Shown: positions 4,812-31,957 of the stretch, piece after piece
Layout of the letters: every line of letters starts with the position of its first letter
Position numbering within the stretch: the first letter of the stretch is position 1
Source: Nostoc sp. PCC 7120 = FACHB-418
GTDB taxonomy: Bacteria; Cyanobacteriota; Cyanobacteriia; Cyanobacteriales; Nostocaceae
NCBI RefSeq assembly: GCF_000009705.1
Contig: NC_003272.1
Span: 2,400,001 to 2,432,000, forward strand
Reading direction: 5' to 3'
DNA: 32,000 nt
Made by a program: the position numbers and the translations under genes
Notes under the pieces: model-generated
What the model was told of the DNA's origin: nothing
What the model saw: only the letters and a program-made list of their open reading frames with translations
Databases searched by the model: none

Positions 4812-5975
4812 ATGAAATTAGTTTGCGCCCAAAGCGACCTCAGTACAAACCTTTCCCTCGTCAATCGTGCTGTACCATCACGACCGACTCATCCAGTACT
4901 TGCTAACGTGCTGTTGCAAGCGGATGCTGAAACTAATCAAGTAAGCTTAACAGCCTTTGATCTTAGCTTGGGTATCCGTACTAGTTTTAATGCTGACGTA
5001 TGGCAAAGTGGAGCGATCGCACTTCCTGCTAAATTATTGGTAGATATCACCTCACGTCTGCCAGAGGGAGAAATTACCCTAGATGATGAATCAGCCACCG
5101 ACGGTACAGCAACCGGAGAAGGTTTAATAGTTAGCCTGACCCCAAAAACCGGAAAGTACCAATTACGAGCAATGGGAGCGGGAGAGTTTCCCGAATTACC
5201 CCTAATTGAGAACACCACAGCTATTTATCTCACAGCTACTTCCTTAATTGAAGGATTGCGGGGTTCATTATTTGCTACTAGTGGCGACGAAACTAAGCAA
5301 GTCCTCACAGGAGTACATCTGACAGTTAAACAAGATACCTTGGAATTTGCCGCTACTGATGGGCATCGTCTAGCCGTAGTCGAAACCACTAATGAGCGTC
5401 CCTTAGAAGATAACGACCAGCAATTAGAGGTAACAGTACCAGCTAGAGCCTTACGCGAACTAGAAAGGATGTTGGCTCATAATGCCGCCTCTGAGGAACC
5501 CATAGCGTTATATTTAGACCAAGGTCAAGTCGTCTTTGCATGGCAAAACCAACGCCTAACTAGTCGCACATTAGAAGGTCAATACCCAGCTTATCGCCAA
5601 CTTATTCCCCGCCAATTTGAGCGACAAGTGACCATTGAACGCCGACAATTCTTAAGCACATTAGAAAGAATTGCTGTACTAGCAGACCAGAAAAATAATA
5701 TCGTCAAGCTAACTATTGATAGTACTGCCCAAGAGCTGACCTTATCTTGTGAAGCTCAAGAAATGGGCAGTGGGAGAGAGTCGATGAATGCGGAAATTGC
5801 TGGGGAAGATATAGAAATTGCTTTTAATGTCAAATACTTAATGGAAGGACTCAAAGCCTTACCATCCCCAGAAATTCAAATGCACATCAACCAAAATCTA
5901 ACTCCAGTAATTTTCACTCCCCTGGGTGGTTTGAAGATGACTTATTTGGCTATGCCGGTGCAATTAAGAAATTAA
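4812..5975 (+). CDS. dnaN: DNA polymerase III beta sliding clamp
   Basis: 387 aa. N-terminus MKLVCAQSDLSTNLSLVNRAVPSRPTHPVLANVLL and three-domain length are typical of DnaN. It sits directly downstream of dnaA/oriC. Confidence 0.95.
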   Translation: MKLVCAQSDLSTNLSLVNRAVPSRPTHPVLANVLLQADAETNQVSLTAFDLSLGIRTSFNADVWQSGAIALPAKLLVDITSRLPEGEITLDDESATDGTATGEGLIVSLTPKTGKYQLRAMGAGEFPELPLIENTTAIYLTATSLIEGLRGSLFATSGDETKQVLTGVHLTVKQDTLEFAATDGHRLAVVETTNERPLEDNDQQLEVTVPARALRELERMLAHNAASEEPIALYLDQGQVVFAWQNQRLTSRTLEGQYPAYRQLIPRQFERQVTIERRQFLSTLERIAVLADQKNNIVKLTIDSTAQELTLSCEAQEMGSGRESMNAEIAGEDIEIAFNVKYLMEGLKALPSPEIQMHINQNLTPVIFTPLGGLKMTYLAMPVQLRN

Positions 5976-16619: not shown

Positions 16620-16699
16620 TTTGGCTATTTAGATTAGGTGATTGTTGTTGGTTGCTATAGCAATTCCTAAACAAGTGAGGTACGGAGTTATTTTTTTAA

Positions 16700-16740
16700 C
16701 GCAAAGGGGCGCGAAGGAAAGCGCAAAGGGGCGCGGAGGA
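16700..16740. repeat. Tandem 19-nt GC-rich direct repeat
   Basis: CGCAAAGGGGCGCGAAGGA (16700-16718) and CGCAAAGGGGCGCGGAGGA (16722-16740), 18/19 identical with period 22. It is preceded by TTAACG, like the 8851 element. Confidence 0.85.
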
Positions 16741-16784
16741 TTTTTACTTAGTACCTTAGTGGATTGGGAAATAGGGAAATAAAT

Positions 16785-16816
16785 TTTTGAATTTTGAATT
16801 TTGAATTTTGAATTGA
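16785..16816. repeat. Heptamer tandem repeat, about 4.5 units of TTTTGAA
   Basis: ttttgaa ttttgaa ttttgaa ttttgaa ttga read directly. It ends 2 nt before the stop codon of the C39-ABC gene. Confidence 0.9.
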
Positions 16817-16818
16817 TT

Positions 16819-19041
16819 TCATCCTTCCGTCCGAATCAAACGCGAATATGCACCCTCAACTTGCCAAAGTTCTTGGTGCGTACCTTGTTGTACTACTTTC
16901 CCCCGTTCCAGGACAATGATTTGGTCACAGTCGCGGATAGTGCTTAATCGGTGCGCCACGATAATACAGGTACATCCCCGACGGCGGAGATTTTGGTCAA
17001 TGATTTTTTCTGTTTCTGCGTCTAAGGCGCTGGTGGCTTCATCCATAACTAGGATAGAGGGATTATTTACCAACGCACGGGCAATTTCTAACCGTTGTCG
17101 TTGACCACCACTGAGATTAGCAGCACCTTCGATGAGTTCGGCATCATAACCTCCAGACATAGAGAAAATTACATCAGCGATCGCAGCATCTTGGCAAGCC
17201 CTCATGAGGTTTTTATCTGGTACAGTAGTATCCCAAAGGGTTAAATTGTCCCTCACCGTACCGCCAAACAGCAAAATTTCCTGCTCGACCATCGCCACAG
17301 AGTTAGTCAGTAGTTGGAGGGAAATCTCCTCTCTCGGTTGACTATCAAAGTAGATTTCCCCAGTCCAAGGTTGATACAGTCCGCTTACAAGTTTGGCAAT
17401 GGTAGACTTACCAGAACCGCTTCCCCCCACTAACGCCACACGCTGTCCTGGTTTAATTGACAGATTAAAGTTTTCAATTAAAGGCGCTTCCAAGCGGCTA
17501 TAACCAAAAGTGATATTTTTTAACTCCACATATCCTTGCAATTTAGGAAGCGCCTGGAGTGATGAAGACGATGTTTTACCCCCTACTTCCCCCACGGGGT
17601 TATCCAACACATCATCAAGACGAATCAAGTTTCCCTCTAATTCCTGGAGAGTCGTACCAAAGTTGACGAGATTGTTGACGGGTTGCTGAAAACCAGACAT
17701 TAAACCTTGAAAGGCGATGAGCATACCGATACTTAGATGTCCATCCATCACGCGGAAACCACCGACTATCAAGAGCAACATGGCGGAGAGAGCCGATAGC
17801 AGTGTGGGTAAAACTGAGAATGTCTGGTTTGTAATTCCTAGTTCCTGTTGGGAATTGAGCGCCTTGGTGTAATAACCAGACCATCGAGAAAAGAAATCAG
17901 ACTCTAACCCTGATGCTTTGAGTGTTTCTATACTTTGTAATGTAGCGATAGATATACCCGCCGCCTTCCCATATTCTTGAATTAATCGTTGATTAGCATC
18001 TATCCGTTGACGAGAAATCCATTGCAAAGTTAAGACGTTCACGGCGGCAAAACTGACCACCATCAAGGTAAGTACCCAGTCATACTGCACCATCACCAAA
18101 GCATAAAAAAGCACCATCAATGTGTCAATGATGGTTGTTGCTAACTGTCCAGCCAGAACATCGGCTACTTGGTCATTTAGGGTAGTGCGATTACTGATTT
18201 CCCCAGCAAATCTTTGAGCATAAAAGCTCACTGGTAGGCGGAGAATATGCCAGAGGAAACGGCTAGACATACCCACAGCTAGTCTAATTTTGAGTCGGCG
18301 TAGGTAGCGTAGTCGTAGTAATGTGAGTGATCCTTGCAGTATAGCAGCGATCGCCATTGCCAAAAGTAGAGGGTGCAGCCATAACATTCGTCCCTGCACC
18401 AAGATATCATCGACAAATATTTGACTAAATACGGGGATTACCAACCCAATAATCGTCAAGAAAAATCCTGCCACGATGCAGTAAACTAAAGCACTCTCAG
18501 CCCCCTGTAACCGTGACCACAAAGATGCAATCATGCTGGGTTTGCGACCACCTTTTTGGAACTCTGCGCCTGGTTCCATCACCAGTACTATTCCGGTATA
18601 TCCCTCGTCAAATTCTTGTAACGATACATGACGCGGCCCCGTAGCGGGGTCATTGATATAAACCTGATGTTTACCAAATCCCTCTACCACAACAAAATGG
18701 TTAAAGTTCCAAAAGACAATATAAGGAGGGCGTAATTGTTGTACTTGCTTCAGTTCTTTTTTAAAACCTTTAGCTTCTAGTCCATAAGTTCTGGCAGCTT
18801 TCACCATATTAGATGCCTTGCTGCCATCGCGGGAAACTCCGCAGTCTCGCCGCAGTTGTGGCAATGGTACAACTCGACCGTAGTAACCAAGAATAATTCC
18901 CAAAGCAGCCGCACCACATTCTACCGCTTCCATTTGTAGCAGCGTGGGCGTTTTCACTCGCAGCCTTCTAGGTGGTAGTATTTTTTTTACATACTGCCAA
19001 GGATTAACCAGTGTTACTACGGTAGATTTAGTAGATACCAC
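16819..19041 (-). CDS. Peptidase-C39-domain ABC transporter (double-glycine leader cleavage and export); NHLP/Nif11 export subunit 1 type
   Basis: 740 aa. C39 residues are in context: LLQMEAVECGAAALG (Gln/Cys), NFNHFVVV (His), INDPA (Asp). Walker A GGSGSGKST, LSGGQRQR, ILVMDEATSALD. The GTG start at 19041 overlaps the HlyD stop by 14 nt; the next Met would delete the catalytic Cys. Confidence 0.92.
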   Translation of the reverse strand: MVSTKSTVVTLVNPWQYVKKILPPRRLRVKTPTLLQMEAVECGAAALGIILGYYGRVVPLPQLRRDCGVSRDGSKASNMVKAARTYGLEAKGFKKELKQVQQLRPPYIVFWNFNHFVVVEGFGKHQVYINDPATGPRHVSLQEFDEGYTGIVLVMEPGAEFQKGGRKPSMIASLWSRLQGAESALVYCIVAGFFLTIIGLVIPVFSQIFVDDILVQGRMLWLHPLLLAMAIAAILQGSLTLLRLRYLRRLKIRLAVGMSSRFLWHILRLPVSFYAQRFAGEISNRTTLNDQVADVLAGQLATTIIDTLMVLFYALVMVQYDWVLTLMVVSFAAVNVLTLQWISRQRIDANQRLIQEYGKAAGISIATLQSIETLKASGLESDFFSRWSGYYTKALNSQQELGITNQTFSVLPTLLSALSAMLLLIVGGFRVMDGHLSIGMLIAFQGLMSGFQQPVNNLVNFGTTLQELEGNLIRLDDVLDNPVGEVGGKTSSSSLQALPKLQGYVELKNITFGYSRLEAPLIENFNLSIKPGQRVALVGGSGSGKSTIAKLVSGLYQPWTGEIYFDSQPREEISLQLLTNSVAMVEQEILLFGGTVRDNLTLWDTTVPDKNLMRACQDAAIADVIFSMSGGYDAELIEGAANLSGGQRQRLEIARALVNNPSILVMDEATSALDAETEKIIDQNLRRRGCTCIIVAHRLSTIRDCDQIIVLERGKVVQQGTHQELWQVEGAYSRLIRTEG

Positions 19042-20527
19042 TGGCAGACCTCAAGATTGGTAAAACAAAGGTGATGGGAGCGCGTTCTTCTACCTTGACC
19101 CGCACAACGGTAGTAGTTCCAGAAGAAATATTCAGGTGCGGCCCCGTGGAAGAAGACCACTTGTAACCGCTTGGTGTGTTGGCATCTAATTCTAAGTGAG
19201 AGAATACTTGTATTAATCCTTGCTGTTGAGATACTAAACCTTCCAGCACCTCAGAATTACCGACTTCATTAGCAGCCGCTTCCTTGGTAATCGGGAAGCG
19301 AGAAATGCTGGTGACATTACCCACAATCCCCCCAAAGCGTTCCCGCTTCACCGTTTGGGGAGTAATTTGGATAGACATCCCTGGCTGAATTTTCTTACCC
19401 TCCGCCACAGGAAAATAGGTAACACCAACCAACTTACTCTGGGGATTTTCCGCCTCTATGGTAGCTAACCGTGTACCTGCGTTAACAACTTGCCCTGGTG
19501 TCAAGGTAATTTCTAAAATGCGTCCGCTATGTTGACTAATAATCTGGCTATTATCACTCAGTTGCAGTTCTAGAGAGCCAATCTCTCGCTTCACCTCTTG
19601 AATTTCTTTATTTCTCGCCGTGACATTTTCTAAATCTTGTTGAGCCACGGAAGCCTGTTGACTATCTAATTGTTTCAACTGTGACTGCAAGTCAGCCACA
19701 AGTGTCAAATTTTCCCGATAATCTTTTTCTTGTTGAGTCTCTTTGACATCAAGTTCTTTTAATTGTGCTTGAATATCAGCAATCTTTTCTAAGTTTTGCA
19801 GATATTCCTGTTCTGCTTTGAGGGCTTCATCACCGGAAATCGCCCCTTCTTTTTGAAATAATTCTTGGCGAATTTTCATCCTCCGTAGAAACACAGCAGT
19901 CAGAGCTTGAGCTTGCTGGAGACGTTGCTGTAAGCCTTGACGTTGCTGATCAACAGAGGTGTTACCTTTGGTTTTGAGTAAAGGTGTAATAGCTTCCAAT
20001 TCCAGTATACGCTGCCGGAGGTACTGACGCTGTTGTTGCTGCGATCGCTCCTCTTGTTCCAACCTCCGCCCTTGTAGTGAGCCAACAGCTTTATCTTGCG
20101 ATTCCAGTTGTGTTAGTTTCCCTCGCTGTTGTTGCAGTTGCTTACGCAGTTCAGCTTGGTCAATTGTCGCCAACACCTGCCCTTTTTTAATCACATCCCC
20201 CACTTTCACATTCAACGCCATGATTTGCCCGGCACTTTTGGATTGTAGGGGTACAACATTGCTAGGGTAAATCAATACACCCCGACCCTCAACGGTGATG
20301 GGAATGCTACCATAAATACTCCAGATAAAAGCAACTCCCACAATAGAACCCAACGCCACAAGAGGTAGCCAGCTTTTAGGACTGACTACCTGCATCAGTT
20401 GGTCTAATCTTTCAGGAGAAGATAGACGCTCTAAGGATTCTTTGCGGAATATACTGCCTTTTTTTGTAGCATTAGTTTGGTAACAAAACCTTCTCACTAG
20501 ATTTACTATTGTGGCGACGGAACTCAT
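19028..20527 (-). CDS. HlyD-family membrane fusion/secretion protein
   Basis: N-terminal FRKESLERLSSPERLDQLM + TM (WLPLVALGSIVGVAFIW), lipoyl-like GQIMALNVKVGDVIKKGQVLATID, a long Gln-rich coiled coil, and C-terminal GRILEITLTPGQVVNAGTRLATIE. The first ATG is at 20527 (the track starts at a TTG at 20536). It overlaps the 3' end of the upstream rSAM gene by about 56 nt. Confidence 0.9.
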   Translation of the reverse strand: MSSVATIVNLVRRFCYQTNATKKGSIFRKESLERLSSPERLDQLMQVVSPKSWLPLVALGSIVGVAFIWSIYGSIPITVEGRGVLIYPSNVVPLQSKSAGQIMALNVKVGDVIKKGQVLATIDQAELRKQLQQQRGKLTQLESQDKAVGSLQGRRLEQEERSQQQQRQYLRQRILELEAITPLLKTKGNTSVDQQRQGLQQRLQQAQALTAVFLRRMKIRQELFQKEGAISGDEALKAEQEYLQNLEKIADIQAQLKELDVKETQQEKDYRENLTLVADLQSQLKQLDSQQASVAQQDLENVTARNKEIQEVKREIGSLELQLSDNSQIISQHSGRILEITLTPGQVVNAGTRLATIEAENPQSKLVGVTYFPVAEGKKIQPGMSIQITPQTVKRERFGGIVGNVTSISRFPITKEAAANEVGNSEVLEGLVSQQQGLIQVFSHLELDANTPSGYKWSSSTGPHLNISSGTTTVVRVKVEERAPITFVLPILRSASGIY

Positions 20528-22502
20528 GAAGATCAATATAGCCAGCAGGTAATTCTGAAACTGATAGATAAGGTGAACAAGACCCCTTTAATGCTAAACT
20601 GAGTAGTCTGCCATCGATATCTAACAAAATCTTACGCTCTCGTAACTCAGATACAATGGGGAATATTTCATCCCAGGATACCGGAACGTCAAGCTTTTTA
20701 TTAATTTCTGACACTACTTCTCGATAAGTCAAAGCGCGATCGCAAACTTTATAAACCCAATAAGCCAATCCTTCTAGAAACAATAGACTTTCGGTAGCGC
20801 ATGGTCTACTATCATAAATTGTAATTAAGCTACCACTATCATTCATGCTCAAAATTGGTAAATACTCTGGTTTATGTTCCTTGTAGTACAAAGACTGCCA
20901 TAAACGATTCCATTGGTTTACCCAGAGTTTCAAGTTTTCTAACCCTGGACGCTCTGTTTTTTCACTTGTTTGTTCATTTTCTTCTGTTGCATAACGAGTA
21001 ACCAAATTGTTTTGGTCTTCAAAAAAGTAGGCAAGTTCACTAAGTATTTCTGGCGCAAGTGGATATACGTATTTATAAGGGCGCAAAGGAGACAAGTTTA
21101 AACCCCAGTCCGATGGTCGCTCATAGTAAGGACTAAATCGGTCATAACGAATCTCTGATGCACCGCTTGGTGGTTGGAGATGAGCAATTAAAGGTAGCCA
21201 TTCCATCATCTCCACATACCACTCATCTGACTCCCCTGGAAAGTCCGCAAGTATATTCCAAAATACAATAATTCCTAATTCTCTAGCCCATTTCAATAAC
21301 TGCACATTCATCCAGGCTGTGTTACCTTTGTTCATCAGTTTTAAAATGGAGTTGTGCATACTTTCGATGCCTGGTTGGATGCAACGAACACCAGCTTGTG
21401 CCAATTGTTGCAGATGTTCCCACCTTAAGTTAGCTTTCGTTTCATAAAAAATATTGTAAGCTTCATCTCCAGCAGCAAGAACCGGAATAACCGTATTCAT
21501 GTGATTCATATCTAGGATATTATCGACCACCTGAAATTTACGCAGTCCATAACGTTCACATAGCTGGGTAAACTCTTTCAGCACACGATCAGGAGATTTA
21601 GAACGGTAATTTATACCACTTCCGTTCAATCCACAAAAAGTGCAATGATGTTTTTGCCCCCACCAACATCCACGAGAGGTTTCAATCAAAAGTCCAGGTT
21701 GAATGTAGGGCGAAAGTGTAGAAGCATGGAGGGTTTGAAAGTAATCATCGTAGTCAGGAATTGGTACTTGATCTAAGTTCTGTACGGAAGCTCTTGGCGC
21801 GGCTATGCTGATTTTGGTAGAAGTCCGATGAGATGGACTAATTACACCATAAGGCAATATTGATGGATCAACCTCTCGACCACCATCCAAAAGCTGATAG
21901 CAAAACTCATTAAATAAATCGTCACCCTCTCCCGAAATGATAAAATCTACCCAAGAAAAATGTGTGTGAGTAGCTAACCCCATAGCCCCTTCACAGTTAG
22001 CACCTCCCATAAAAGTAATAATTTCCGGGGCTAACTCTCGTACACGTTTCAAGAGAGCAAGTGAAGCACAATGCTGCTGAAATGTAGAACTACAGCCAAT
22101 AATACGGGGTTGTAAATTGGCTACAGACTGAGCAACACTTTCAATAAATGCTGTAGCCTGCTCACGTACTGCCAAAAATGCTTCTTTCAGGTTCCTATCA
22201 GGCAAATAATTCTCGTAGCTTTTGAAACATGGAGAAATAAGATCGAAATACTCTGAATGGTTAGGATTAAATTCAGGAAATAACACTCCAGAAAATGTCC
22301 ATTCACCCAAGAACGTTTCAATAAAATTCTCACTAATCATAGCATATACATCAAGGCCTATTTCTTCTGCAAACTGGATATTTGGGTATAAAATTGTTGG
22401 TTCAAGCTTTGCTTGTTGTAGACGAGCCTTTAATAAACCAAGAGCAATTGATGGTCTTTCAACTGCTGCATAAGGCATTAATACTAAACATACATCACTC
22501 AT
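20472..22502 (-). CDS. B12-binding-domain radical SAM RiPP maturase (candidate C-methyltransferase, TIGR03975-like from memory)
   Basis: 676 aa. N-terminal Rossmann-like B12 domain pattern (VCLVLMPYAAVERPSIALGLLKA, IIGCSSTFQQHCASLALL, FMGGANCEG). The cluster motif SRGCWWGQKHHCTFCGLNG has C-x7-C-x2-C spacing. Confidence 0.85.
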   Translation of the reverse strand: MSDVCLVLMPYAAVERPSIALGLLKARLQQAKLEPTILYPNIQFAEEIGLDVYAMISENFIETFLGEWTFSGVLFPEFNPNHSEYFDLISPCFKSYENYLPDRNLKEAFLAVREQATAFIESVAQSVANLQPRIIGCSSTFQQHCASLALLKRVRELAPEIITFMGGANCEGAMGLATHTHFSWVDFIISGEGDDLFNEFCYQLLDGGREVDPSILPYGVISPSHRTSTKISIAAPRASVQNLDQVPIPDYDDYFQTLHASTLSPYIQPGLLIETSRGCWWGQKHHCTFCGLNGSGINYRSKSPDRVLKEFTQLCERYGLRKFQVVDNILDMNHMNTVIPVLAAGDEAYNIFYETKANLRWEHLQQLAQAGVRCIQPGIESMHNSILKLMNKGNTAWMNVQLLKWARELGIIVFWNILADFPGESDEWYVEMMEWLPLIAHLQPPSGASEIRYDRFSPYYERPSDWGLNLSPLRPYKYVYPLAPEILSELAYFFEDQNNLVTRYATEENEQTSEKTERPGLENLKLWVNQWNRLWQSLYYKEHKPEYLPILSMNDSGSLITIYDSRPCATESLLFLEGLAYWVYKVCDRALTYREVVSEINKKLDVPVSWDEIFPIVSELRERKILLDIDGRLLSLALKGSCSPYLSVSELPAGYIDLHEFRRHNSKSSEKVLLPN

Positions 22503-22577
22503 GATTTTATTTATATAATTTTCGTTTATGCCGTGGAAAATAGGAATTTGTATTTTATTAATTTAAAACACTAGTTA

Positions 22578-22607
22578 TCTAGCCTAAAATCTTATTTTTA
22601 GGCTAGA
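22578..22607 (-). terminator. 12-bp perfect stem-loop immediately 3' of the NHLP-1 precursor gene (attenuator/processing hairpin candidate)
   Basis: 22578-22589 pairs with 22596-22607 (tctagcctaaaa / ttttaggctaga) with a 6-nt loop. It lies 9 nt downstream of the precursor stop and ahead of the rSAM gene. The U-run follows only after about 9 nt, so it is not a textbook terminator. Confidence 0.4.
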
Positions 22608-22615
22608 CATTTAAC

Positions 22616-22909
22616 TTAAAACTTAACTTTAACCGTAACTGAAACTTCGCCACTAATTCTACCACCTGCTACTGACTCTAGCTCTGCTTCAGATAATGTA
22701 TCTTGCTCAGAATTTGGTAACGCCTGCAAAGATAAATTTCCTGGAGTAGTTTCCACCAAATTAACATCAATACTGGATGGAAGATTAATTCCCTCTTTTT
22801 CCAGAGTAGACCGAGGATTAGATACTAAAGCCTGCTTAAAAGACTCATCTTGCCCAGCTTTTACTATAATTTTTTCTTCGAGTTCTTTCCATGTCATTAC
22901 TAGACTCAT
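22616..22909 (-). CDS. NHLP-leader RiPP precursor 1; predicted core RISGEVSVTVKVKF
   Basis: 97 aa. The nitrile-hydratase-like leader pattern WKELEEKIIVKAGQDESFKQALVSNPRSTLEKEGINLP...LSEAELESVAGG ends in a double glycine. AAGGAG Shine-Dalgarno sequence upstream of the ATG at 22909. The core is 22619-22660. Confidence 0.9.
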   Translation of the reverse strand: MSLVMTWKELEEKIIVKAGQDESFKQALVSNPRSTLEKEGINLPSSIDVNLVETTPGNLSLQALPNSEQDTLSEAELESVAGGRISGEVSVTVKVKF

Positions 22910-23194: not shown

Positions 23195-26100
23195 TTACTG
23201 CCATAACAATATTGAAGGTAGTAAGTCTGGACATGATAATCTCAATAGCTCATAGCCAATACCAGCTATTCCTTGACAAAAACCAAAACTATATACGTCG
23301 GCTGGTAAATGAGGAAGAAGTTGAAAATAACCAATCTGGTTTGCTCTAGACAAAACTTGAGTTGCTCGATTATTTGCTGTTTCTAGTAATTCTGGGTGTG
23401 AAAGTTGCTTAGATGCAACTAATAACATTTCTATATGACTAAAATTGCCACAGCAGATGTTATCTAAAACCTGTAAACTTGAGTGATGTATTGTATGTAA
23501 ATTTATATCTAATTCTTGACGAATTTCATCTGTATCGAGGATGTTTAAAGTTCCTAACCGAGCCACAGAAATACCAATTAGCCCAGAACACCATTCAGTT
23601 GTAGATGAGAGTAAGCTATTGTCAATGCTAACTAAATCCAAGTCTTGGCAATTGCTGCTTAACGAGAATAAACGTTGTTCTAAAGTAATAGCTTCTCGAG
23701 CTGCTGATGCAAAGATTGGCTCATCAGTAGCTGCATATAATTGAAGCAGTGCATAGGCAATACCCGCAGCACCATGAGAAAATCCTAGTAGTACCTTGCC
23801 TTCAGCATTAGTCCAGGCTTGATAGACTTCATCTACGGTTACACGAGTATCTAGTAAATAATTGCCCCAGCTAATAGCCTGCTGTAAAGTAGCAGGTTCT
23901 TTTGTAGCTTTGTACAAAGCTAATAAGCTAAGAATTGTACCAGCAACACCAGTCATTACTCCAGGTGCTTGATTAACGGTCGCTTCATTTATTACCATCA
24001 AAGAAGCTAGTTGTTGAGCATCCTGAATCAGCTCTACTTCGCCGAGAAACTCACTAATACGAACTAGGGCATAAACAATAGAAGCTAATCCTGTAGCACC
24101 ACCAATACCCATTTGTCCAATTAGCTTTTGCTGAAGGTCAATATGTGGATCTTGTAAAGTTTTGCGTAGGGACTGTAAAGATGCTAAGGATAATTCACCA
24201 AATTCTGCTCGATTCGTAACAGACGCTAGTGCTGCTAAAAATAAAGATATGCCACAACAACCATCATATAAACTATTGCCTACTGGCTGTAATTGAAACC
24301 TTTGCGCCTCAAACAAGTATCCCATCCCAATCCAGGTAACACTATTGTCCTTTCCGCGAATAGCTTGCTGCTCTAGTTGTTGAGCGATGGCGATCGCCTG
24401 CTGTAACATACCTCGTCTTTCTATGGGGGCAACTATGTCCATGTACAGGTTAGGATTCTCTAATGGTAAAGAATTTAGTTGTTCATTAGTCAGACATGAG
24501 TAAAGTGAACCTCTAATCAGGCTAATCTGCTTCGCTAAATCTGCATCATCCATCTGTCGCAGATGGGCAATAACATCGTCATAACTAGAACTACTCAAAA
24601 ATTTATTGATAGTTTGCTCTGAACTAATATCTATTACATTACTATCTGAATATGCCGTGAAATAAGGAATATCTAACTGTTCTAAAGCTTGCTTTTCTGC
24701 TGCTAATAATGGCCATAAAGGATGTTTATCTTCTGAAGAGAGAAATGCTCTGCTTAGTAAGTCTAACTGAATACTATGTTCTACTCCAGTTCGCAAGCAT
24801 TTATGATTTAAAGAGTTCTGCAAAATAGAAGCGTAAACAGTAGTATTGCGAATTACAAGCCGTACTTTCTGGTTGCTAAATGCCGTTATTGGACTATCAC
24901 TTGCTAACAGTTCTTCTTTTCTTTGTTGCAAGAACTGGTACATCTGCCGAAATCCATCTATGAGTTCTTTGCTGTGGTTATTCAGCGAGGTATCAATATT
25001 CTCACCAAAAGGTCGATTTTTTTTTGGTAGTAATTTAGTGTACTCGCGTACAATAACCATGCTATCTGTATTAATGTGCTTCCATTTCATTGCTCGGTAA
25101 GGCATCTCTTGTTCACCAAAACCTCCCAATCCACTGAAGTCTAACTTCAGTATCTCAGTTTGCTCATAAGGCAAAATTTGCCATCCTGGTAAGAAACCAG
25201 TACCAACAACAGAATCTTGTAAACATTCATTTGCTATAGATTTAGCATCAGCATCATCTTTACTTAACCAAGTACGGTGATGTAAAAGTGTCTCTAAATC
25301 TACAAGAACTGGCTGATCTCCACAAGCAATTAAGTTTTCACAATGACAGTCGTTCCCTTTTAAGAGGTACACAATACACAGCACCATACCGGCACGCTGA
25401 TAATAGTGTTTCACTGCGTCTTGATCTTGACATGGCAAAGCTTCAGCGAACTCCATCCAACCGTAGTTAGAGCAATTAATTATCTTCAGCAGCTTCAGGG
25501 GCAAGTTAATTTTTTGTTGATTAATCCAATCTAAAAAATCAAAATAAGCCTTTTCTAAGCCTAAGCTTTTAGGTTTGTAAACTAGCTTGAAACCTGAAGC
25601 AAACTTAATCACAATTACAGCACGGCCACGATTATGAAAATCAGACATTGCTAATTGAACACTAACAACTTGCCCTAATTTTTGCTCTGGCTGAAAAGTC
25701 AACTGAATTTTATCCGAGTCTGATGCCAATCTTGAGAGAAATTCTCCAGTCGCTTCTACCCAGAAGTCTACAGATGTTGCTATCAATCTAGCTAATACAC
25801 TGTACTCTTGGAAGAAAGACAGTAGTCCGTCTTTAAGTAATTTGTTAACAAAATCTGTGTACTGCTGCTTAGAACAATTACTTTGCAACTGATTAATAAA
25901 ACGAACTAAGGGAGAACTTTTTAAAGAGCGAAAAATTGAGAACTCCAGTTCCAAAGGAGAGATGCAAATACCAGTCAAATGCTCCAGGAGACTTCGTTCC
26001 ATTTGAATATGAGCATTTTGTGATAATAAATAATAGCTAGATCCAGCAGACTCAATTAATTTTTTTTTAGCAACATCAACAAATGGTACCAGAATTTCTT

Positions 26101-26488
26101 CAAACGGAAACGGACGTTCAGGATCTAAATACCGATGCTGCTGTAAGAATTTGTTGTTTGAATTTTCTGGAATAACAAAAGTAGCAACTTGCATTCCTGC
26201 TTTTAAAGTTTCCACCCAGTTGGGTAGATATTTTTCATCAGCTAGATTAACATTACCTAAAACACAGCTAATAGTATTAGTATCTAAGCCATCCCACAAT
26301 AAACGCTTTTCAAAATTATGTTGATTTCCTTTAGCGATAAATTGATACCATTTTTCTAATTTAGCATTATTTTGATTTGCATTTATTTGACGGTCATTGA
26401 AAATAAAACTACTACTAAGACGTTCAGAAATATTACTAGAACGCTCTATTATTTTAATTAAAGATTGCTTAGAAACGTTCATAATCAA
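23195..26488 (-). CDS. lanM: Class II lanthipeptide synthetase (LanM), ProcM-like CCG subtype
   Basis: 1097 aa. Dehydratase/kinase-like motifs DFHNRGRAVIVIKF..KLVYKPKSL and GNDCHCENLIACGDQPVLVDLETLL. C-terminal LanC-like motifs GFSHGAAGIAYAL, EWCSGLIGI and NICCGNFSH (the CCG codons are at 23447-23455). Confidence 0.95.
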   Translation of the reverse strand: MIMNVSKQSLIKIIERSSNISERLSSSFIFNDRQINANQNNAKLEKWYQFIAKGNQHNFEKRLLWDGLDTNTISCVLGNVNLADEKYLPNWVETLKAGMQVATFVIPENSNNKFLQQHRYLDPERPFPFEEILVPFVDVAKKKLIESAGSSYYLLSQNAHIQMERSLLEHLTGICISPLELEFSIFRSLKSSPLVRFINQLQSNCSKQQYTDFVNKLLKDGLLSFFQEYSVLARLIATSVDFWVEATGEFLSRLASDSDKIQLTFQPEQKLGQVVSVQLAMSDFHNRGRAVIVIKFASGFKLVYKPKSLGLEKAYFDFLDWINQQKINLPLKLLKIINCSNYGWMEFAEALPCQDQDAVKHYYQRAGMVLCIVYLLKGNDCHCENLIACGDQPVLVDLETLLHHRTWLSKDDADAKSIANECLQDSVVGTGFLPGWQILPYEQTEILKLDFSGLGGFGEQEMPYRAMKWKHINTDSMVIVREYTKLLPKKNRPFGENIDTSLNNHSKELIDGFRQMYQFLQQRKEELLASDSPITAFSNQKVRLVIRNTTVYASILQNSLNHKCLRTGVEHSIQLDLLSRAFLSSEDKHPLWPLLAAEKQALEQLDIPYFTAYSDSNVIDISSEQTINKFLSSSSYDDVIAHLRQMDDADLAKQISLIRGSLYSCLTNEQLNSLPLENPNLYMDIVAPIERRGMLQQAIAIAQQLEQQAIRGKDNSVTWIGMGYLFEAQRFQLQPVGNSLYDGCCGISLFLAALASVTNRAEFGELSLASLQSLRKTLQDPHIDLQQKLIGQMGIGGATGLASIVYALVRISEFLGEVELIQDAQQLASLMVINEATVNQAPGVMTGVAGTILSLLALYKATKEPATLQQAISWGNYLLDTRVTVDEVYQAWTNAEGKVLLGFSHGAAGIAYALLQLYAATDEPIFASAAREAITLEQRLFSLSSNCQDLDLVSIDNSLLSSTTEWCSGLIGISVARLGTLNILDTDEIRQELDINLHTIHHSSLQVLDNICCGNFSHIEMLLVASKQLSHPELLETANNRATQVLSRANQIGYFQLLPHLPADVYSFGFCQGIAGIGYELLRLSCPDLLPSILLWQ

Positions 26489-26561
26489 TTTAAAATAATT
26501 AATTTATTACTTTTTATGAAAAACCTCTCCGGTTTCATTGTAAATGTTTTAATGATTTGTA

Positions 26562-26714
26562 TTATTTAGGACTTGGAAAAAAGAATTTATAGATTTCGGC
26601 ACCAAAATCTTTTCCCTGATCATAAAGCATTGCTCCATTTAAAATAACAACAATCACAAAAATGCTTATGATTACGAATTTAATAATAACTTTAGGATCA
26701 TTTAAATTTTGCAT
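26562..26714 (-). CDS. Unannotated 50-aa single-pass membrane ORF; candidate immunity/accessory peptide
   Basis: Below the track's size cutoff. I translated it codon by codon: MQNLNDPKVIIKFVIISIFVIVVILNGAMLYDQGKDFGAEIYKFFFPSPK, with a TAA stop at 26562-26564. It has one hydrophobic helix, and its tail resembles the core of precursor 2. It sits between precursor 2 and lanM on the same strand. Confidence 0.45.
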   Translation of the reverse strand: MQNLNDPKVIIKFVIISIFVIVVILNGAMLYDQGKDFGAEIYKFFFPSPK

Positions 26715-26759
26715 AATAATTTAATGTATTATCCATCGTCCATGATGAGTTTTTTTGCT

Positions 26760-26783
26760 GGTGTAAGAAAAAACTCCTACACC
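26760..26783 (-). other. Weak stem-loop 3' of the NHLP-2 precursor
   Basis: GGTGTAAG (26760-26767) / CCTACACC (26776-26783), 7 of 8 bp, with an 8-nt loop. No U-tract follows on the sense strand. Confidence 0.25.
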
Positions 26784-26848
26784 AACTTGATTTACAGCGA
26801 AGTGTGATTTTTAGAACAATCTATGATCACAGTGTTTTCTGGAGAAAA

Positions 26849-26924
26849 GCTTTGTGTATTTCTTTACCAAAACCTTTTAATCTACAATGGCTTTATATAT
26901 TTCTTTGCCAAAGTCTTTTAATCT
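26849..26924. repeat. Tandem 35-nt direct duplication (period 41) spanning the 3' end of the NHLP-2 core
   Basis: 26849-26883 versus 26890-26924: 30/35 identical by my position-by-position comparison. Copy 1 encodes RLKDFGKEIYKA in frame. Copy 2 is out of frame and contains the gene's TAA stop (26877-26879). Confidence 0.85.
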
Positions 26925-27227
26925 ATCATAAGTTTTCTCAACAAAAGTGAATATATCTCCAAGACTTCCACCGGCAACCGCTTCTAACTGCTCTTCAGAT
27001 AACTCTACATCTTCTAAATTGGGACGTGCAGGAATTACGAAGTAGAAATTGGAATCATTCTCTTCCACTACATGAACATTTATTTCTTCTGGTAATTGAA
27101 TAGCAAATTCTCTTTCAATTACAGCTTTAGAGTTGTTTAATAACTCTTGCCTGTAGGTTTCGTCTTTCCAGGCTTGAACAATTATTTGTGCTTCAATTTC
27201 TTTACGAGTCTTTGTTTGTTCGCTCAT
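26877..27227 (-). CDS. NHLP-leader RiPP precursor 2; predicted core SLGDIFTFVEKTYDRLKDFGKEIYKAIVD
   Basis: 116 aa. The leader RKEIEAQIIVQAWKDETYRQELLNNSKAVIEREFAIQLPEEINVHVVEEN..FVIPARPN..LSEEQLEAVAGG is a near-consensus NHLP leader. The core is 26880-26966. Confidence 0.92.
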   Translation of the reverse strand: MSEQTKTRKEIEAQIIVQAWKDETYRQELLNNSKAVIEREFAIQLPEEINVHVVEENDSNFYFVIPARPNLEDVELSEEQLEAVAGGSLGDIFTFVEKTYDRLKDFGKEIYKAIVD

Positions 27228-27384
27228 TTTGGTTATTTCCTACTTAAACTAATTAAGGGTTTAATTGATTGGTGGACTGATGAATTCAAGAAAAGAATAG
27301 TAAGTTTTATCAGATGTAATACTAGTTTAAGCTTCCATCTGTATGAGACTTACATAATCATGAATTCTTTAATTTTTAGATTGA

Positions 27385-27720
27385 TTATTTTCTAGAATTA
27401 TGTTCTTCAAGAGCGCCATGAGCGATAGGAATTAAAAGGAGCGTAAGTGTCCATAACGCTCCACCAGCAACGGCTTCTAGCTGCTCATCTGATAATTCTA
27501 CATCTTCTAAGTTAGGGCGTGCAGGAATTACAAAATAGAGGTTAGAAGCATTTTCTTCCATGACGTGAACTGTTATTCCCTCTGGTAATTGAACACCAAA
27601 TTCTTGTTCAACTATTTTTTTAGGATTGTTCAGTAATTCCTGTCTGTAAGCTTCATCTTTCCATGCTTGCACAATGATTTGTGCTTCAACATCTTTACGA
27701 GTTTTAGTTTGCTCACTCAT
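27385..27720 (-). CDS. NHLP-leader RiPP precursor 3; predicted core ALWTLTLLLIPIAHGALEEHNSRK
   Basis: 111 aa. The leader is 71/87 identical to that of precursor 2. AGGAGA Shine-Dalgarno sequence upstream. The core is 27388-27459. Confidence 0.92.
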   Translation of the reverse strand: MSEQTKTRKDVEAQIIVQAWKDEAYRQELLNNPKKIVEQEFGVQLPEGITVHVMEENASNLYFVIPARPNLEDVELSDEQLEAVAGGALWTLTLLLIPIAHGALEEHNSRK

Positions 27721-27853
27721 TCCATTTATCTCCTAACACTACTAAGGTGGAAATTAAGTTATTACTTAAATTAAGTTTATAAAAAAAACGCTAAGGACAC
27801 AATGTACTTTTTTTAGTTAATACTACGTTTTTTTTATTTTAATTTTAAATATG

Positions 27854-28042
27854 TTAATGATTTGTTTTTTGCCAAATAATAGCAGTCAATTCTGCTATAT
27901 CTAAAGCCTGTTTAGCCTTAATTACTTCTCTCAAAAAAGCTCGTTCATCTTCCCAAGCAAACCGAGGTAGGAGAGGTTGAGAAACTAACAGTTCTTCAGA
28001 GGAAATGTTTGCGTCCTGATTTTCTTCGTTTAAATGATTCAT
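27854..28042 (-). CDS. 62-aa acidic/helical hypothetical protein translationally coupled to the rSAM/SPASM gene (possible accessory subunit)
   Basis: Its ATG (28042-28040) overlaps the TGA of the upstream rSAM gene (28041-28039) as ATGA. MNHLNEENQDANISSEELLVSQPLLPRFAWEDERAFLREVIKAKQALDIAELTAIIWQKTNH. No recognisable motif. Confidence 0.5.
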   Translation of the reverse strand: MNHLNEENQDANISSEELLVSQPLLPRFAWEDERAFLREVIKAKQALDIAELTAIIWQKTNH

Positions 28043-29301
28043 CTTGCTACAGAATAAAAAAGTTCAGATTTACTTTGCCAACTATCCGGCCATTGGATGG
28101 AGTCAGCCGTAAAGTGGAGTGGATCATTTTCTATCCAGGGTGCATCAAGTGGTTCTTCAATGATGGTAAATTCGCCATTATCGAAGGGAACTCCTGGGGC
28201 TGACACTTTTGGATAAACTCGCTCTCGTAAGCCACGCTTTGCTAATTCTAGGGCGCGATGGTGGCAGTAAGGATTGTTACCCCGACGATTGAAGAATACG
28301 TGTGCTGTCCAAGTGCAACCCCCGCGACACAATTCGGCAAATTTACAAGTCTTGCAGAATCCCCACAAGTACGCTGTTCCTTCGGGTGTACCAGCATAGA
28401 GATTGAACTGCAATTCTTCGGATTGTTCTACAATTTCCCTTAGTGGACGTTCTCGGATATTGCCACCTGCATAAGCGGTTGTTGGTAGGGAAGGGCAGCC
28501 TTTAATTGTGCCGTCCGCCTCTAAACCTAAAGTTGATAGCCCAGCACCGCAACCCCGCCAAAATCCCCACTCTTTACCTTGTCCCCGCAGCAACCGTTCA
28601 TAAGGCCCGTAGTAACCGATGTTGTTACCAGCAGCAACTCTTACCCCTTCGGTGTTAGCTCGTTGAGCAACACGAGCCAGCATAGGATATAAGTCTAATA
28701 GCTCAGAGGGTTGGAGAAGGATATCTGCATTGTCGGCGGCATTTCCCATTGGCACAGTTAGTTGAATTTGCCATGCTCGCGCGCCTGCATCGCGGATATG
28801 CTCATAAATACTAGGAAATTCAGGGGCAGACAGACGGTTGATTTGGGTATTACAGCCGAAGAGAATGCCAACTTCTTTAAGGTAGCTCATGGTTCTTAAG
28901 CCAGACTTCCAAGAGCCTTTTCGTCCCCGTAAATGATCATGGGTTGCTTCCATGCCATCGGTAGAAACAGAAACTTTTGCAATTCCTGCTTCTTTCATAC
29001 GCTGTGCCATTTCCAAAGAGATGCCATAACCCCCCGTAGTCATGCCGCAGAGCATACCAGCATCGGTAATAGCTTTCGCAATTACTAACCAGTCTGGACG
29101 TAGAAAAGCCTCTCCGCCAATGAGAGTTACTTCTTTAATTCCCACCTCAGCTAATTGCTGAACAAGGTTAAGAGCTTCTGCTGTCGAGAGTTCTTGATGC
29201 CTTGCCTGTCCTGCCCGTGAACCACAATGACTACAAGCAAGATTGCATTTCAATGTGATTTCCCAAACGGCATAACTGGTTCGATGGTGTTTTTCAGACA
29301 T
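28039..29301 (-). CDS. Radical SAM/SPASM-domain RiPP maturase (splicease-like or epimerase-like; chemistry unresolved)
   Basis: CNLACSHCGS (C-x3-C-x2-C) lies near the N-terminus. C-terminal Cys-rich SPASM-type region GCGAGL...GCPSLP...WGFCKTCKFAELCRGGCTWTAHV...YCHH. The track start at 29340 is a TTG; I prefer the ATG at 29301 (MSEKHHRTSYAVWEITLK). Confidence 0.9.
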   Translation of the reverse strand: MSEKHHRTSYAVWEITLKCNLACSHCGSRAGQARHQELSTAEALNLVQQLAEVGIKEVTLIGGEAFLRPDWLVIAKAITDAGMLCGMTTGGYGISLEMAQRMKEAGIAKVSVSTDGMEATHDHLRGRKGSWKSGLRTMSYLKEVGILFGCNTQINRLSAPEFPSIYEHIRDAGARAWQIQLTVPMGNAADNADILLQPSELLDLYPMLARVAQRANTEGVRVAAGNNIGYYGPYERLLRGQGKEWGFWRGCGAGLSTLGLEADGTIKGCPSLPTTAYAGGNIRERPLREIVEQSEELQFNLYAGTPEGTAYLWGFCKTCKFAELCRGGCTWTAHVFFNRRGNNPYCHHRALELAKRGLRERVYPKVSAPGVPFDNGEFTIIEEPLDAPWIENDPLHFTADSIQWPDSWQSKSELFYSVAR

Positions 29302-29339
29302 AGTTTTGCCCAGTGTTTTGGTATTAGCTGTGTAAGTCA

Positions 29340-29378
29340 AAAGCTGTTATGGATTTATATGATGCGTATAACAGCTTT
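29340..29378 (-). terminator. 11-bp perfect stem-loop between the Nif11 precursor and the rSAM/SPASM gene (attenuator candidate)
   Basis: aaagctgttat (29340-29350) pairs with ataacagcttt (29368-29378) with a 17-nt loop. On the sense strand the stem ends in UUU followed by U. Confidence 0.35.
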
Positions 29379-29405
29379 TATAATTACGGCGATGACGTTT
29401 GATAG

Positions 29406-29729
29406 CTATGAAAGATAATCGCGTGGATCAAGTGGATCAAGAATTACACCGTACAGAGCAACTACACCAGGGAAGATACCTTTGATCCAATGAATAGTTT
29501 TTGTTCCACCAGCGATCGCTGCTAATTCCGCTTCGTTAAGTTCCTCATCAGGGGAACTAGTTTCTAAAATCTCAGCAGTAGCAGTTTCCCATTCTTCTTC
29601 TGTGAAATTATATCCTGTTCCTTGTAAGAAACTTATACGTTCTTCGCTGGAATAACTTTCAATTTGAGTGCGGAAAGTTGGATCTGTTGTGATTCTCTGA
29701 TAAAAAGCTTTTGCGCTTTCAATAGACAT
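29406..29729 (-). CDS. Nif11-leader RiPP precursor; predicted core TKTIHWIKGIFPGVVALYGVILDPLDPRDYLS
   Basis: From the ATG at 29729 (AAGAGG Shine-Dalgarno sequence upstream): MSIESAKAFYQRITTDPTFRTQIES...GYNFTEEEW...ELNEAELAAIAGG, a Nif11-type leader with a double glycine. The core is 29409-29504. The Tyr-Gly codons are at 29448-29453. Confidence 0.88.
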   Translation of the reverse strand: MSIESAKAFYQRITTDPTFRTQIESYSSEERISFLQGTGYNFTEEEWETATAEILETSSPDEELNEAELAAIAGGTKTIHWIKGIFPGVVALYGVILDPLDPRDYLS

Positions 29730-29841
29730 ACAAATACCTCTTATGAATAACAAAAACATTAAAAGAAATAAACTAATAGAACAATGCAGAATTTTTGGAT
29801 AAGACTCTGTTTTTTTTCGTTAGATATTTATTAGGAAAAAT

Positions 29842-30936
29842 TTAACTTACTTTTAATCTTCCCAACATCCAATCAAATCTTTTACCAGCGATCGCCATCC
29901 TATCTAAAGTGTTAATATCTAATTCATCGTCATACTCTAGCCCTTCACGTAAAGATTGACCCCGGCTATAAACTCGCCTACCATAACCAAGCTGACTCAC
30001 CATTGCTTGCGATCGCTGGGACAGTAAAGACGCAATTACTCGGTAAAATCTTGATGCAAATCCCACATCTTGTTGTAACTTTGCGGCTAGTTGCTGTCGG
30101 GGAATTGCTAAGACTACAGAATTTTCAATTGCCTTAACAGTTGCAGGGGGTAAACTACCATCTATAAAGGGTGTTTCGCCGATGATTTCACCTTTAGATA
30201 ATTTGGCTATTTCTCTACCAGGAATTTCATGACCCTCAATAGCTGCAAAAGCACGCGCTAAAGGATTCTGTTCATCTGGGGAAATAGACAAGGACATTTT
30301 TCCATAGAGGAGAATATACAGTGCGTCTACAGTTCCTTGTTCATGGATGAGTATGGTATTAGCTGGGATTTTTTGGGGAGTACCAGAAGCCATCATCCAA
30401 TCTATGTCACTATCGTGTAATTCTCCCAGGATAAACAGCACATCTCGTAGATGTTGACTTTGTGCTAGGTTACGACGACCAAGTTGATGGATGGTATTTT
30501 GTATTCTATCGGAAATAATGATGGCGATCGCTCGATAAAAATGCGCCGCAAAACCCACATCTTGCTGTAATTTCGCCGCTAATTCTCCAACCGGAATTGA
30601 CATCACCAGGGACTTTTCCACAGCTTTAATCGTAGTAGCTGGTGGACGTGTCCCAATTAAGGGACTTTCTCCCATTATCTCACCCCTAGATAATCTCCCA
30701 ATCTCCTTACCGAAGATTTCGTTCCCCTCAATAGCTGCAAAAGCACGAGTTAGGGGATTATCTTCTGGTTGCGGGATAGTAACGCTGAATGTACCATCTA
30801 ATAAAATATGTAAAAAATCAGCAGCTTTTCCTGGTTGAATAAGTGTAGTACCAGCCGCTATTTCTCTTTGATGACCTATCGCAACCATCCAGTCAATATC
30901 ACTTTTAGTTAGTTCTTTGAGTAAAACTTCTGTCAT
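29842..30936 (-). CDS. Tandem cyclic-nucleotide-binding-like domain protein (bacteriocin transport-associated type)
   Basis: There are two internally homologous halves (SDIDWMVAIG...RGEIMGESPLIGTRPPATTIKAVE...LQQDVGFAAHFYR and SDIDWMMASG...KGEIIGETPFIDGSLPPATVKAIE...LQQDVGFASRFYR). I prefer the ATG at 30936 (MTEVLLKEL); the track start at 30948 is a TTG. Confidence 0.85.
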   Translation of the reverse strand: MTEVLLKELTKSDIDWMVAIGHQREIAAGTTLIQPGKAADFLHILLDGTFSVTIPQPEDNPLTRAFAAIEGNEIFGKEIGRLSRGEIMGESPLIGTRPPATTIKAVEKSLVMSIPVGELAAKLQQDVGFAAHFYRAIAIIISDRIQNTIHQLGRRNLAQSQHLRDVLFILGELHDSDIDWMMASGTPQKIPANTILIHEQGTVDALYILLYGKMSLSISPDEQNPLARAFAAIEGHEIPGREIAKLSKGEIIGETPFIDGSLPPATVKAIENSVVLAIPRQQLAAKLQQDVGFASRFYRVIASLLSQRSQAMVSQLGYGRRVYSRGQSLREGLEYDDELDINTLDRMAIAGKRFDWMLGRLKVS

Positions 30937-30973
30937 AACTAAGACCAATTATTTATCTACGTTGATACAAAAT

Positions 30974-31957
30974 CTATGACGCTGGTGTAAGTCCCAAGCA
31001 ATTACTCTGTAATCTGTCTAAAGTGTTCTGGATGAAAAAGTGTGCTTCTTGGGTAGCCAATTCTTCTAATGTCAAATATGTCAAAGTGATTAACATTAGG
31101 ATTTGCATATTAGTATCTGTTAGCTTTTGGGCGTATTGAGCATGGAAACGCTGTAAGTTTTCGGCGGCGGCTTTTACCAATGCTTGTAAAATTACAAAAG
31201 CTCCATCAGAAAGTGGCGGTTTACCGCGATAGTTTTGCAGTCTACCTCCTTCTCGATATTGAGGAAATGATTCTAAGCCTAAAAATCGTAAGAACCAGTT
31301 TGCTTGGTAATAACCAGTAGCAGCAATAATGCCTCTATAGTCGGCAATTAATTCGTCAAATATATTATTTCGCATAGAGTTAAATAGACGATATGTTAAA
31401 TAGTGAGTACATTCATGTTCTAGACGAATTGTGAGTGACAATTTTTGCCATTGTGATGCTTTTAGTCCTATTTCTTCGGCTGAAATATTGCTATATGGGA
31501 TATTACTTAAAATAATAAATGTATCTTGATAGAGATGTTTCTGTAGGATTAATCGTTGAAACTCTGTATTCCAATTAGAGGCAAAATGCTCTACTTCCCA
31601 TTTTTGGCGATATTGACGAATCCTGTCCCAATTGTTGAACCCACGAACTATACAAGCTCCCATTGATTGAGGAATAGGTTGGGGTTCGTTATGCTTTGTT
31701 AAGGCTTGCACTAGAGACACAAAATCTTCTCTGTTTTCAGTTAGTAATACGGGGATTGTTCCCGCCAAACTTTGATGGAGGATTAATTGGAGTTTTTGGG
31801 GTTGCTGTAAGACTAAACCAGATGCTTCTAACATCCCATTTGTTGATACACCCTTACGAGTGGCTTTTCTATAGGCTTCTGTCTGAGAGATCCCTTTTTG
31901 GATGGGAAATTGTAACTGTACTAACTTCTGTTTGAGTACTGCAAATGCGCCTATCAT
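30974..31957 (-). CDS. Hypothetical protein with an HExxH motif (LEHECTHY); first gene of the co-directional cluster within the window
   Basis: 327-aa ATG-initiated ORF that is mostly helical. The only recognisable feature is HECTH followed 20 residues later by DELIADY. It lies 25 nt upstream of the cNMP-like gene on the same strand. Confidence 0.7.
   Translation of the reverse strand: MIGAFAVLKQKLVQLQFPIQKGISQTEAYRKATRKGVSTNGMLEASGLVLQQPQKLQLILHQSLAGTIPVLLTENREDFVSLVQALTKHNEPQPIPQSMGACIVRGFNNWDRIRQYRQKWEVEHFASNWNTEFQRLILQKHLYQDTFIILSNIPYSNISAEEIGLKASQWQKLSLTIRLEHECTHYLTYRLFNSMRNNIFDELIADYRGIIAATGYYQANWFLRFLGLESFPQYREGGRLQNYRGKPPLSDGAFVILQALVKAAAENLQRFHAQYAQKLTDTNMQILMLITLTYLTLEELATQEAHFFIQNTLDRLQSNCLGLTPAS

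Follow-up and report, generated by a model that had tools for sequence, protein, structure and literature searches.

A predicted three-component spliceotide system encoded by all2030, all2029 and asl2028 in Nostoc sp. PCC 7120

The prototype PlpAXY spliceotide pathway was reportedly described by Morinaka et al. in Science in 2018. It consists of PlpA2/A3-PlpX-PlpY of Pleurocapsa sp. PCC 7319 (PMC5995677, PMC11002830, PMC11414181), and the published chemistry of PlpA/PlpX/PlpY is the excision of a tyramine unit at Tyr-Gly (YG), with a beta-amino acid left in the peptide. In the type I cyanobacterial systems tested so far, the activity of the X enzyme (the splicease) requires the small Y protein in vivo as well as in vitro; through an alpha-helical region, Y proteins bind to the splicease and bridge it to the precursor leader (PMC11414181, PMC5995677). 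PlpX-like YG-associated enzymes have been recorded in 189 genera, with 27 confirmed enzyme-substrate pairs (PMC10849128). Here, we analysed a stretch of 32,000 nucleotides from Nostoc sp. PCC 7120 (contig NC_003272.1, positions 2,400,001–2,432,000; hereafter, the window) and its genes all2030, all2029, and asl2028, which very probably form a three-component (type I, cyanobacterial) spliceotide system.

All three genes lie on the minus strand in the order Nif11-leader precursor, radical S-adenosylmethionine (rSAM)/SPASM gene, and a short open reading frame (ORF) of 62 residues:

29406–29729, minus strand: Nif11-leader precursor all2030, 107 residues plus stop (BAB73729)
29505–29729, minus strand: precursor leader, ending in GG, followed by the 32-residue core at 29409–29504
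29448–29456, minus strand: predicted splice site Leu-Tyr-Gly, L92-Y93-G94, core positions 17–19
29338–29380, minus strand: intergenic hairpin (precursor stop to rSAM start), with a 13-bp perfect stem and a 17-nt loop
28039–29301, minus strand: rSAM/SPASM gene all2029, 420 residues plus stop (BAB73728), PlpX orthologue and predicted tyramine splicease
27854–28042, minus strand: 62-residue ORF asl2028 (BAB73727), Y protein of the PlpY/PcpY family and predicted splicease activator

The start codon of the small ORF (ATG, 28040–28042) overlaps the stop codon of the rSAM gene (TGA, 28039–28041) as ATGA, reading GCAAGATGAATC. The gene order and this overlap agreed in every detail with the original prediction, which had proposed a PlpX/PlpY-like splicease from the sequence of the stretch. 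The orthology of the three parts, the conservation of the gene trio, and the conservation of the YG motif were established directly, as described below.

The profile search assigned all2029 at equivalog level to TIGR04103 ('nif11-class peptide radical SAM maturase 3'), with 889.7 bits against a cut-off of 725 and a match over profile positions 1–411 of 412. It was the only NCBIfam family whose cut-off the enzyme reached. The nearest sister family, the GDL-motif rSAM/SPASM maturases (TIGR03913), gave 416.5 bits, short of its own cut-off of 591.75 and of the TIGR04103 score; in the list of the 25 best families, everything past the second rank scored under 160 bits, the lowest listed being at 55 bits. 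The InterPro entry IPR026482 is presumably built on TIGR04103. PlpX has been assigned to this entry (PMC11002830). Direct alignment of all2029 with the exact PlpX of Pleurocapsa sp. PCC 7319 gave 76% identity and 87% positives over 420 residues with three gap positions, and 12/12 cysteines were common to the two proteins. The CX3CX2C motif was found at residues 19–26, and a seven-cysteine SPASM motif was arranged as C251-x17-C269 ... C316-x2-C-x5-C-x3-C329 ... C346. An identity of 72%, calculated with PlpX as given in the supplement text of PMC9484694, was replaced by the value of 76% owing to read errors in that sequence.

The same profiles bear on an alternative that the original prediction had kept beside the splicease, namely that all2029 is a PoyD/OspD-type epimerase. 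Such an enzyme would convert L- to D-residues in the core, and the small ORF would be irrelevant. Epimerases and spliceases both work on Nif11/NHLP precursors; moreover, the first spliceases came to light next to epimerases in clusters of the proteusin type, and the plp locus itself carries the epimerase PlpD. However, the epimerase model TIGR04517 (cut-off 325), which scores PlpD with 617.8 bits, is missing from the 25 best families of all2029. The close match of the enzyme is to PlpX, a protein distinct from PlpD, and no PoyD-like gene was present in the window. We consider an epimerase extremely improbable.

The 62-residue protein encoded by asl2028 had no match at E <= 0.01 in Pfam or NCBIfam, PqqD included, which is the reason why it had seemed novel from the sequence and had been put forward as a possible new accessory type. 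For comparison, PlpY was rebuilt from the protein and DNA text in the supplement of PMC9484694 and confirmed as the exact entry WP_019503879.1, the accession given for PlpY in PMC11002830. The two proteins showed 52% identity and 85% positives over residues 21–53 (pairwise E = 4e-13). The Y family is recognizable by the motif LLPR-x-x-W ... LK..LKAKQ.LD, and its invariant residues L25, P26, R27, W30, K44, L47, and D48 are all kept in asl2028. The tail of the protein (..LDIAELTAII) is of the PlpY kind (..LEIAEISNFL) and not of the PcpY kind (..LDRIEKR). An alignment-based profile search for Y relatives reached 584 clusters at E <= 0.001, every named one being hypothetical and without a Pfam domain, while a single-sequence word search reached only 5.

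AlphaFold2, run with an alignment of 42 sequences, gave low confidence for residues 1–22 in the head, which is predicted to be disordered, and a single long helix spanning residues 33–61, with 22 residues having a predicted local distance difference test value (pLDDT) above 90. This helix agrees with the published picture of Y proteins, in which an alpha-helical region makes the contact with the splicease (PMC11414181). When the protein was examined as a possible recognition element for peptides that are made by ribosomes and then modified after translation (RiPPs), known as RRE, there was no match to PqqD or RRE profiles, and the model consisted of the long helix plus a short turn with no winged helix. 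By homology, asl2028 is a PlpY-family activator; as a member of a known Y-protein family, it is not a new accessory type.

The leader of all2030 matched TIGR03798 with 88.9 bits (cut-off 32.3) and also PF07862. It was 50% identical to the leader of PlpA2, the first 12 residues being the same, and ended in AIAGG, after which follows the 32-residue core TKTIHWIKGIFPGVVALYGVILDPLDPRDYLS. The core contains exactly one YG (Tyr, TAC, 29451–29453; Gly, GGT, 29448–29450), and none is found in the cores of the three further precursors in the window (22616–22909, 26877–27227, and 27385–27720); both observations had been made in the original prediction and hold in the translations. The context of the predicted site, GVVALYGVILDP, is comparable to the PlpA2 site AVAAMYGVVFP, and the site of PlpA3 in the plp locus reads PIRPLYGLPI. 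The segment VALYGVI fits the family pattern [PA][LM]YG[V][VI]. An identical precursor protein is present in NCBI records of PCC 7120 and its relatives.

The starts of both larger genes differ between records. The precursor runs from the ATG at 29729 to the stop codon at 29406–29408, while the older annotation of all2030 is a longer ORF of 117 residues starting at 29759, with an upstream extension at 29730–29759. For the rSAM gene, the mechanically called ORF spans 28039–29340, and one record gives 433 residues, the extra upstream part being 29302–29340; the ATG at 29301 (420 residues) matches the current NCBI records. The family profiles and the alignments with PlpA2 and PlpX begin at the shorter forms; 29729 and 29301 are the likely true starts.

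To place the trio among its relatives, we surveyed the 80 closest rSAM loci (at least 75% identical; Pleurocapsa is not among them). According to tblastn, a Y homologue follows the rSAM gene directly and on the same strand in 78 of the 80. Of the other two loci, one lies at the end of a 1.4-kb contig, and the second has a weak match only. The Y gene begins with the 4-nt overlap in 8 loci and within 15 nt of the rSAM stop in 38 more (46/78). Upstream of the rSAM genes, within 2 kb and on the same strand, 97 Nif11/NHLP precursors were collected, and 89 of them carry YG. At least one YG was found in an upstream precursor at 76 of 78 loci; at the two YG-less loci, the precursor was interrupted by Ns or truncated. 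In total, the 97 precursors contain 167 YG dipeptides, about sixfold more than in 500 shuffles (26.1 ± 5.0, maximum 39), and glycine was by far the commonest residue after tyrosine. The consensus of the family site is Q-[P/A]-[L/M]-Y-G-V-[V/I]-[V/I], with which the site of all2030 agrees at positions −2 (A), −1 (L), +2 (V), and +3 (I). The nearest relatives (L001–L004) have ..ALYG.. in short cores, like the window. With the TIGR04103 assignment, the identity to PlpX, and the PlpY match, this enrichment supports the splicease that had been proposed.

The survey also bears on the possibility that all2029 forms a side-chain crosslink, for example, a three-residue cyclophane on the W-I-K stretch of the core or a Tyr-centred bond, with a mass change of −2 Da. 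Crosslinks are common among the products of SPASM rSAM enzymes, the core has W-I-K and two tyrosines, and the enzyme matches crosslinker families weakly (WgkB 68.5 bits, DynA 55.4 bits). These scores are nevertheless far under the respective cut-offs (WgkB 68.5/650, DynA 55.4/450, StsB 89.7/625, SkfB 84.1/300), whereas that of TIGR04103 is exceeded. The cores of relatives conserve x-Y-G but not W-I-K, and the enzyme is orthologous to a characterized splicease. A crosslinking enzyme, the other alternative raised in the original prediction, appears very improbable.

For the splicease reading, we infer the chemistry, the exact site, the removal of the leader, and the bioactivity of the product as follows. 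The Y protein would dock its conserved C-terminal helix on the rSAM enzyme, bridge it to the Nif11 leader, and thereby activate it. The enzyme would cleave S-adenosylmethionine reductively at the CX3CX2C cluster, two SPASM auxiliary clusters presumably being present as well, and a tyramine equivalent (C8H9NO, 135.068 Da) would be excised by radical chemistry from Tyr93 of L92-Y93-G94. With this predicted loss, the calculated monoisotopic mass of the core changes from 3595.981 to 3460.912 Da and that of the full precursor from 11962.888 to 11827.820 Da. An ATP-binding cassette (ABC) exporter with a C39 peptidase would then cut after GG and export the peptide of ~3.46 kDa. Its candidate genes form a module ~8 kb downstream of the trio:

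13761–20536, minus strand: export and leader-cleavage module of three genes, all above their family cut-offs
13761–16619, minus strand: ABC2 (TIGR03797, 1051.7 bits)
16819–19041, minus strand: C39-peptidase ABC1 (TIGR03796, 1213.8 bits)
19028–20536, minus strand: HlyD-type adaptor (TIGR03794, 584.3 bits)

The C39-ABC/HlyD module probably cleaves all precursors of the locus after GG and exports them. The predicted product is a peptide derived from 32 residues with one leucine-type alpha-keto-beta-amino acid, a pharmacophore behind protease inhibition by characterized spliceotides. Judging by these, it would most likely be a protease inhibitor (PMC11626197).

Experimental data on the small gene come from a 2014 study of the regulator HetR in Anabaena PCC 7120 by chromatin immunoprecipitation sequencing (ChIP-seq), in which asl2028 was a target of 'unknown' function (PMC4192349). 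A 300-bp fragment upstream of asl2028 drove gfp in vegetative cells, and the gene had RNA-seq reads; the reporter was silent in mature heterocysts, its signal was weaker in a hetR mutant, and the authors called the regulation by HetR inconclusive (PMC4192349). The published asl2028 primer set maps exactly onto the start of the 62-residue ORF. The promoter-gfp fragment corresponds to positions 28040–28339 of the window and is wholly contained in the 3′ end of this gene, that of the splicease; the shortened, inactive fragment begins at 28270, just downstream of the putative HetR site:

28271–28285, minus strand: published putative HetR-binding site TCGGGGTAACAATCC (PMC4192349, Table 2), within the rSAM coding region

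This 15-mer occurs exactly once in the window, about 230 nt upstream from the small ORF, and covers the codons R-R-G-N-N-P. Its synonymous positions differ among relatives, the closest of which have AGAGG instead of CGGGG. The conserved codons R-G-N-N-P largely dictate the 15-mer, and its conservation thus gives no independent support. The gfp data show transcription into the Y gene.

Several points weigh against a working splicease in PCC 7120. The literature searched yields no biochemical or mass-spectrometric evidence for the locus, and the gfp data for asl2028 are transcriptional only. Any bioactivity ascribed to the product is drawn purely from analogy. The residue at position −3 of the site is valine, whereas sites of the family have glutamine there in 131 of 160 cases; glutamine at −3 is also missing from the PlpA2 site. 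Lastly, not every YG is spliced, as the DYG site of RcsA is left unmodified (PMC11626197).

Some of these points could also mean that the trio is orthologous to PlpAXY yet cryptic or conditional in PCC 7120, for example, if the Y protein is made from its own HetR-dependent promoter, if the substrates are mainly encoded elsewhere, or if the single site is converted poorly. The fragment that drives gfp and is weaker in the hetR mutant lies wholly within the rSAM gene, many characterized spliceases reach only moderate conversion (PMC11626197), and the site has Val in place of the usual Gln. On the other hand, the catalytic cysteines and the invariant residues of the Y protein are all intact, the ATGA overlap argues for co-translation of Y with the rSAM enzyme, and the HetR motif coincides with conserved codons whose synonymous positions are not kept in relatives. 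We regard a cryptic trio as unlikely and an active splicease system as the preferred reading. A related idea, in which a HetR-dependent promoter within the 3′ part of the splicease gene, on in vegetative cells and silent in heterocysts, supplies Y and so gates splicease activity by cell type, is doubtful. If true, production of the ketoamide peptide would be confined to vegetative cells, and the peptide would be a member of the HetR regulon.

The hairpin between the precursor and the rSAM gene has a minimum free energy of −19.8 kcal/mol (z = −3.2) and may act as an attenuator or processing element. Among 27 related loci, the median z was −0.85, and 22% had z < −2; with a comparable structure in only about one-fifth of them, the hairpin is not a family feature. 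A scan of 27300–30100 for consensus promoters and terminators gave counts no higher than in shuffles.

On the minus strand, the order from 5′ to 3′ is DUF7005 gene, double cyclic nucleotide monophosphate (cNMP)-binding gene, Nif11 precursor, rSAM/SPASM gene, and 62-residue ORF. Past the small ORF follow two NHLP precursors, a LanM gene, a third NHLP precursor, a B12-binding rSAM gene, and the HlyD/ABC export module. The two genes upstream of the trio are as follows:

29842–30948, minus strand: double cNMP-binding 'bacteriocin-type transport-associated protein' (TIGR03896, 528.7 bits)
30974–31957, minus strand: DUF7005 protein (PF22541, 514 bits)

The DUF7005 protein carries an HExxH-like stretch, 'LEHECTHY'. 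This pair is common to the window (29842–31957) and to the authentic plp locus (L081:10411–12710), although the gene order differs; L081 is the contig of Pleurocapsa sp. PCC 7319 from which the exact PlpX was taken.

The LanM protein (TIGR03897, 1014 bits; region 23195–27720, minus strand), whose translation has ..NICCGNFSH.. and ..FCQGIAG.., adjoins two NHLP precursors with the cores SLGDIFTFVEKTYDRLKDFGKEIYKAIVD and ALWTLTLLLIPIAHGALEEHNSRK. These have Ser/Thr but lack Cys, so no lanthionine rings can form there; LanM could only dehydrate these cores, or its real substrates could be encoded elsewhere. The B12-binding enzyme (TIGR03975, 'RiPP maturation radical SAM C-methyltransferase', 869 bits; region 20472–22909, minus strand) has an NHLP precursor as its partner, whose alternating core is very short: RISGEVSVTVKVKF after GG. 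Similar short cores, KAEVSISITIKF and FKLSWTFSLEF, occur near the splicease in relatives (L001:7430–7705; L003:7448–7759). An ORF of 50 residues (26562–26714, minus strand) with a hydrophobic stretch contains YDQGKDFGAEIYK, 10/13 identical to YDRLKDFGKEIYK in the core of the NHLP precursor at 26877–27227; a leaderless remnant, an immunity-like protein, and a chance resemblance are all conceivable. On the plus strand, the translations of 3018–4397 and 4812–5975 (region 3018–5975) resemble, by eye, DnaA and DnaN, the beta clamp of DNA polymerase III. Should this hold, the multi-RiPP locus would lie ~8 kb from the chromosomal dnaA-dnaN region.

These data give a concrete predicted function to three genes of a model cyanobacterium, Nostoc/Anabaena sp. 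PCC 7120, two of which are still mislabelled or unlabelled in the records and literature consulted: all2029 is called a 'heme biosynthesis protein', and asl2028 is 'hypothetical'. In the literature searched, to which Morinaka 2018 and Scott 2022 did not belong, no paper ties asl2028 to PlpY or a splicease to PCC 7120. The HetR study came before the discovery of spliceases; its target asl2028 is now connected, by homology, to a known biochemical role, that of splicease activator. As asl2028 is a predicted splicease activator, cell-type-specific RiPP maturation becomes testable in a genetically tractable host. The locus is an uncharacterized, straightforward member of a widely mined splicease family and reveals neither new chemistry nor a new accessory protein.

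Among described systems, small partners of rSAM/SPASM maturases that serve precursor recognition are also known from PqqD/PqqE and other RRE-dependent enzymes. Published descriptions of Y proteins range from distantly PqqD-like to 'truncated RRE' (PMC11414181, PMC11002830); that of the window is essentially one predicted long helix, in contrast to the winged-helix RRE of the PqqD type. The type II binary spliceases of Rheinheimera (RhaX/RhaA, RcsX, and RasX) also excise tyramine at XYG, the site being LYG in RasA (PMC11626197). They have no Y protein, and an alpha-helix of the leader fills the Y-helix site on the enzyme (PMC11414181). With its separate Y gene, the system of the window is not of type II. 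The type I system PcpA-PcpX-PcpY of Pleurocapsa sp. PCC 7327, with two splice sites, has three components like the window, and its PcpY is essential and bridges PcpX and the precursor (PMC11414181). PcpY-type proteins and the Y protein of the window have the motif LLPR.AW...LK..LKAKQ.LD in common and differ in the tail (...DRIEKR in the PcpY type; ...IAE(L/I) in the PlpY type and the window). PcpA-like precursors, and most of those at Nostoc loci, have long cores with repeated QP[LM]YGV, whereas the core of all2030 is short and has one site.

The closest likeness in architecture is to PlpAXY, which shows the same order of Nif11 precursor, rSAM/SPASM enzyme, and small Y protein, and a single [LM]YG site after small hydrophobic residues in PlpA. 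Both loci also contain the DUF7005 protein (60% identity), the double cNMP-binding protein (48%), and a HlyD plus C39-peptidase ABC exporter. The plp locus has two Nif11 precursors and the epimerase PlpD, whereas the window has one splicease precursor and no epimerase gene. Its neighbours, LanM and the B12-rSAM C-methyltransferase, each with NHLP precursors of their own, are likewise unlike those of the plp locus. Outside the YG context, the core of the window is unlike PlpA, while the trio itself follows the Plp arrangement.

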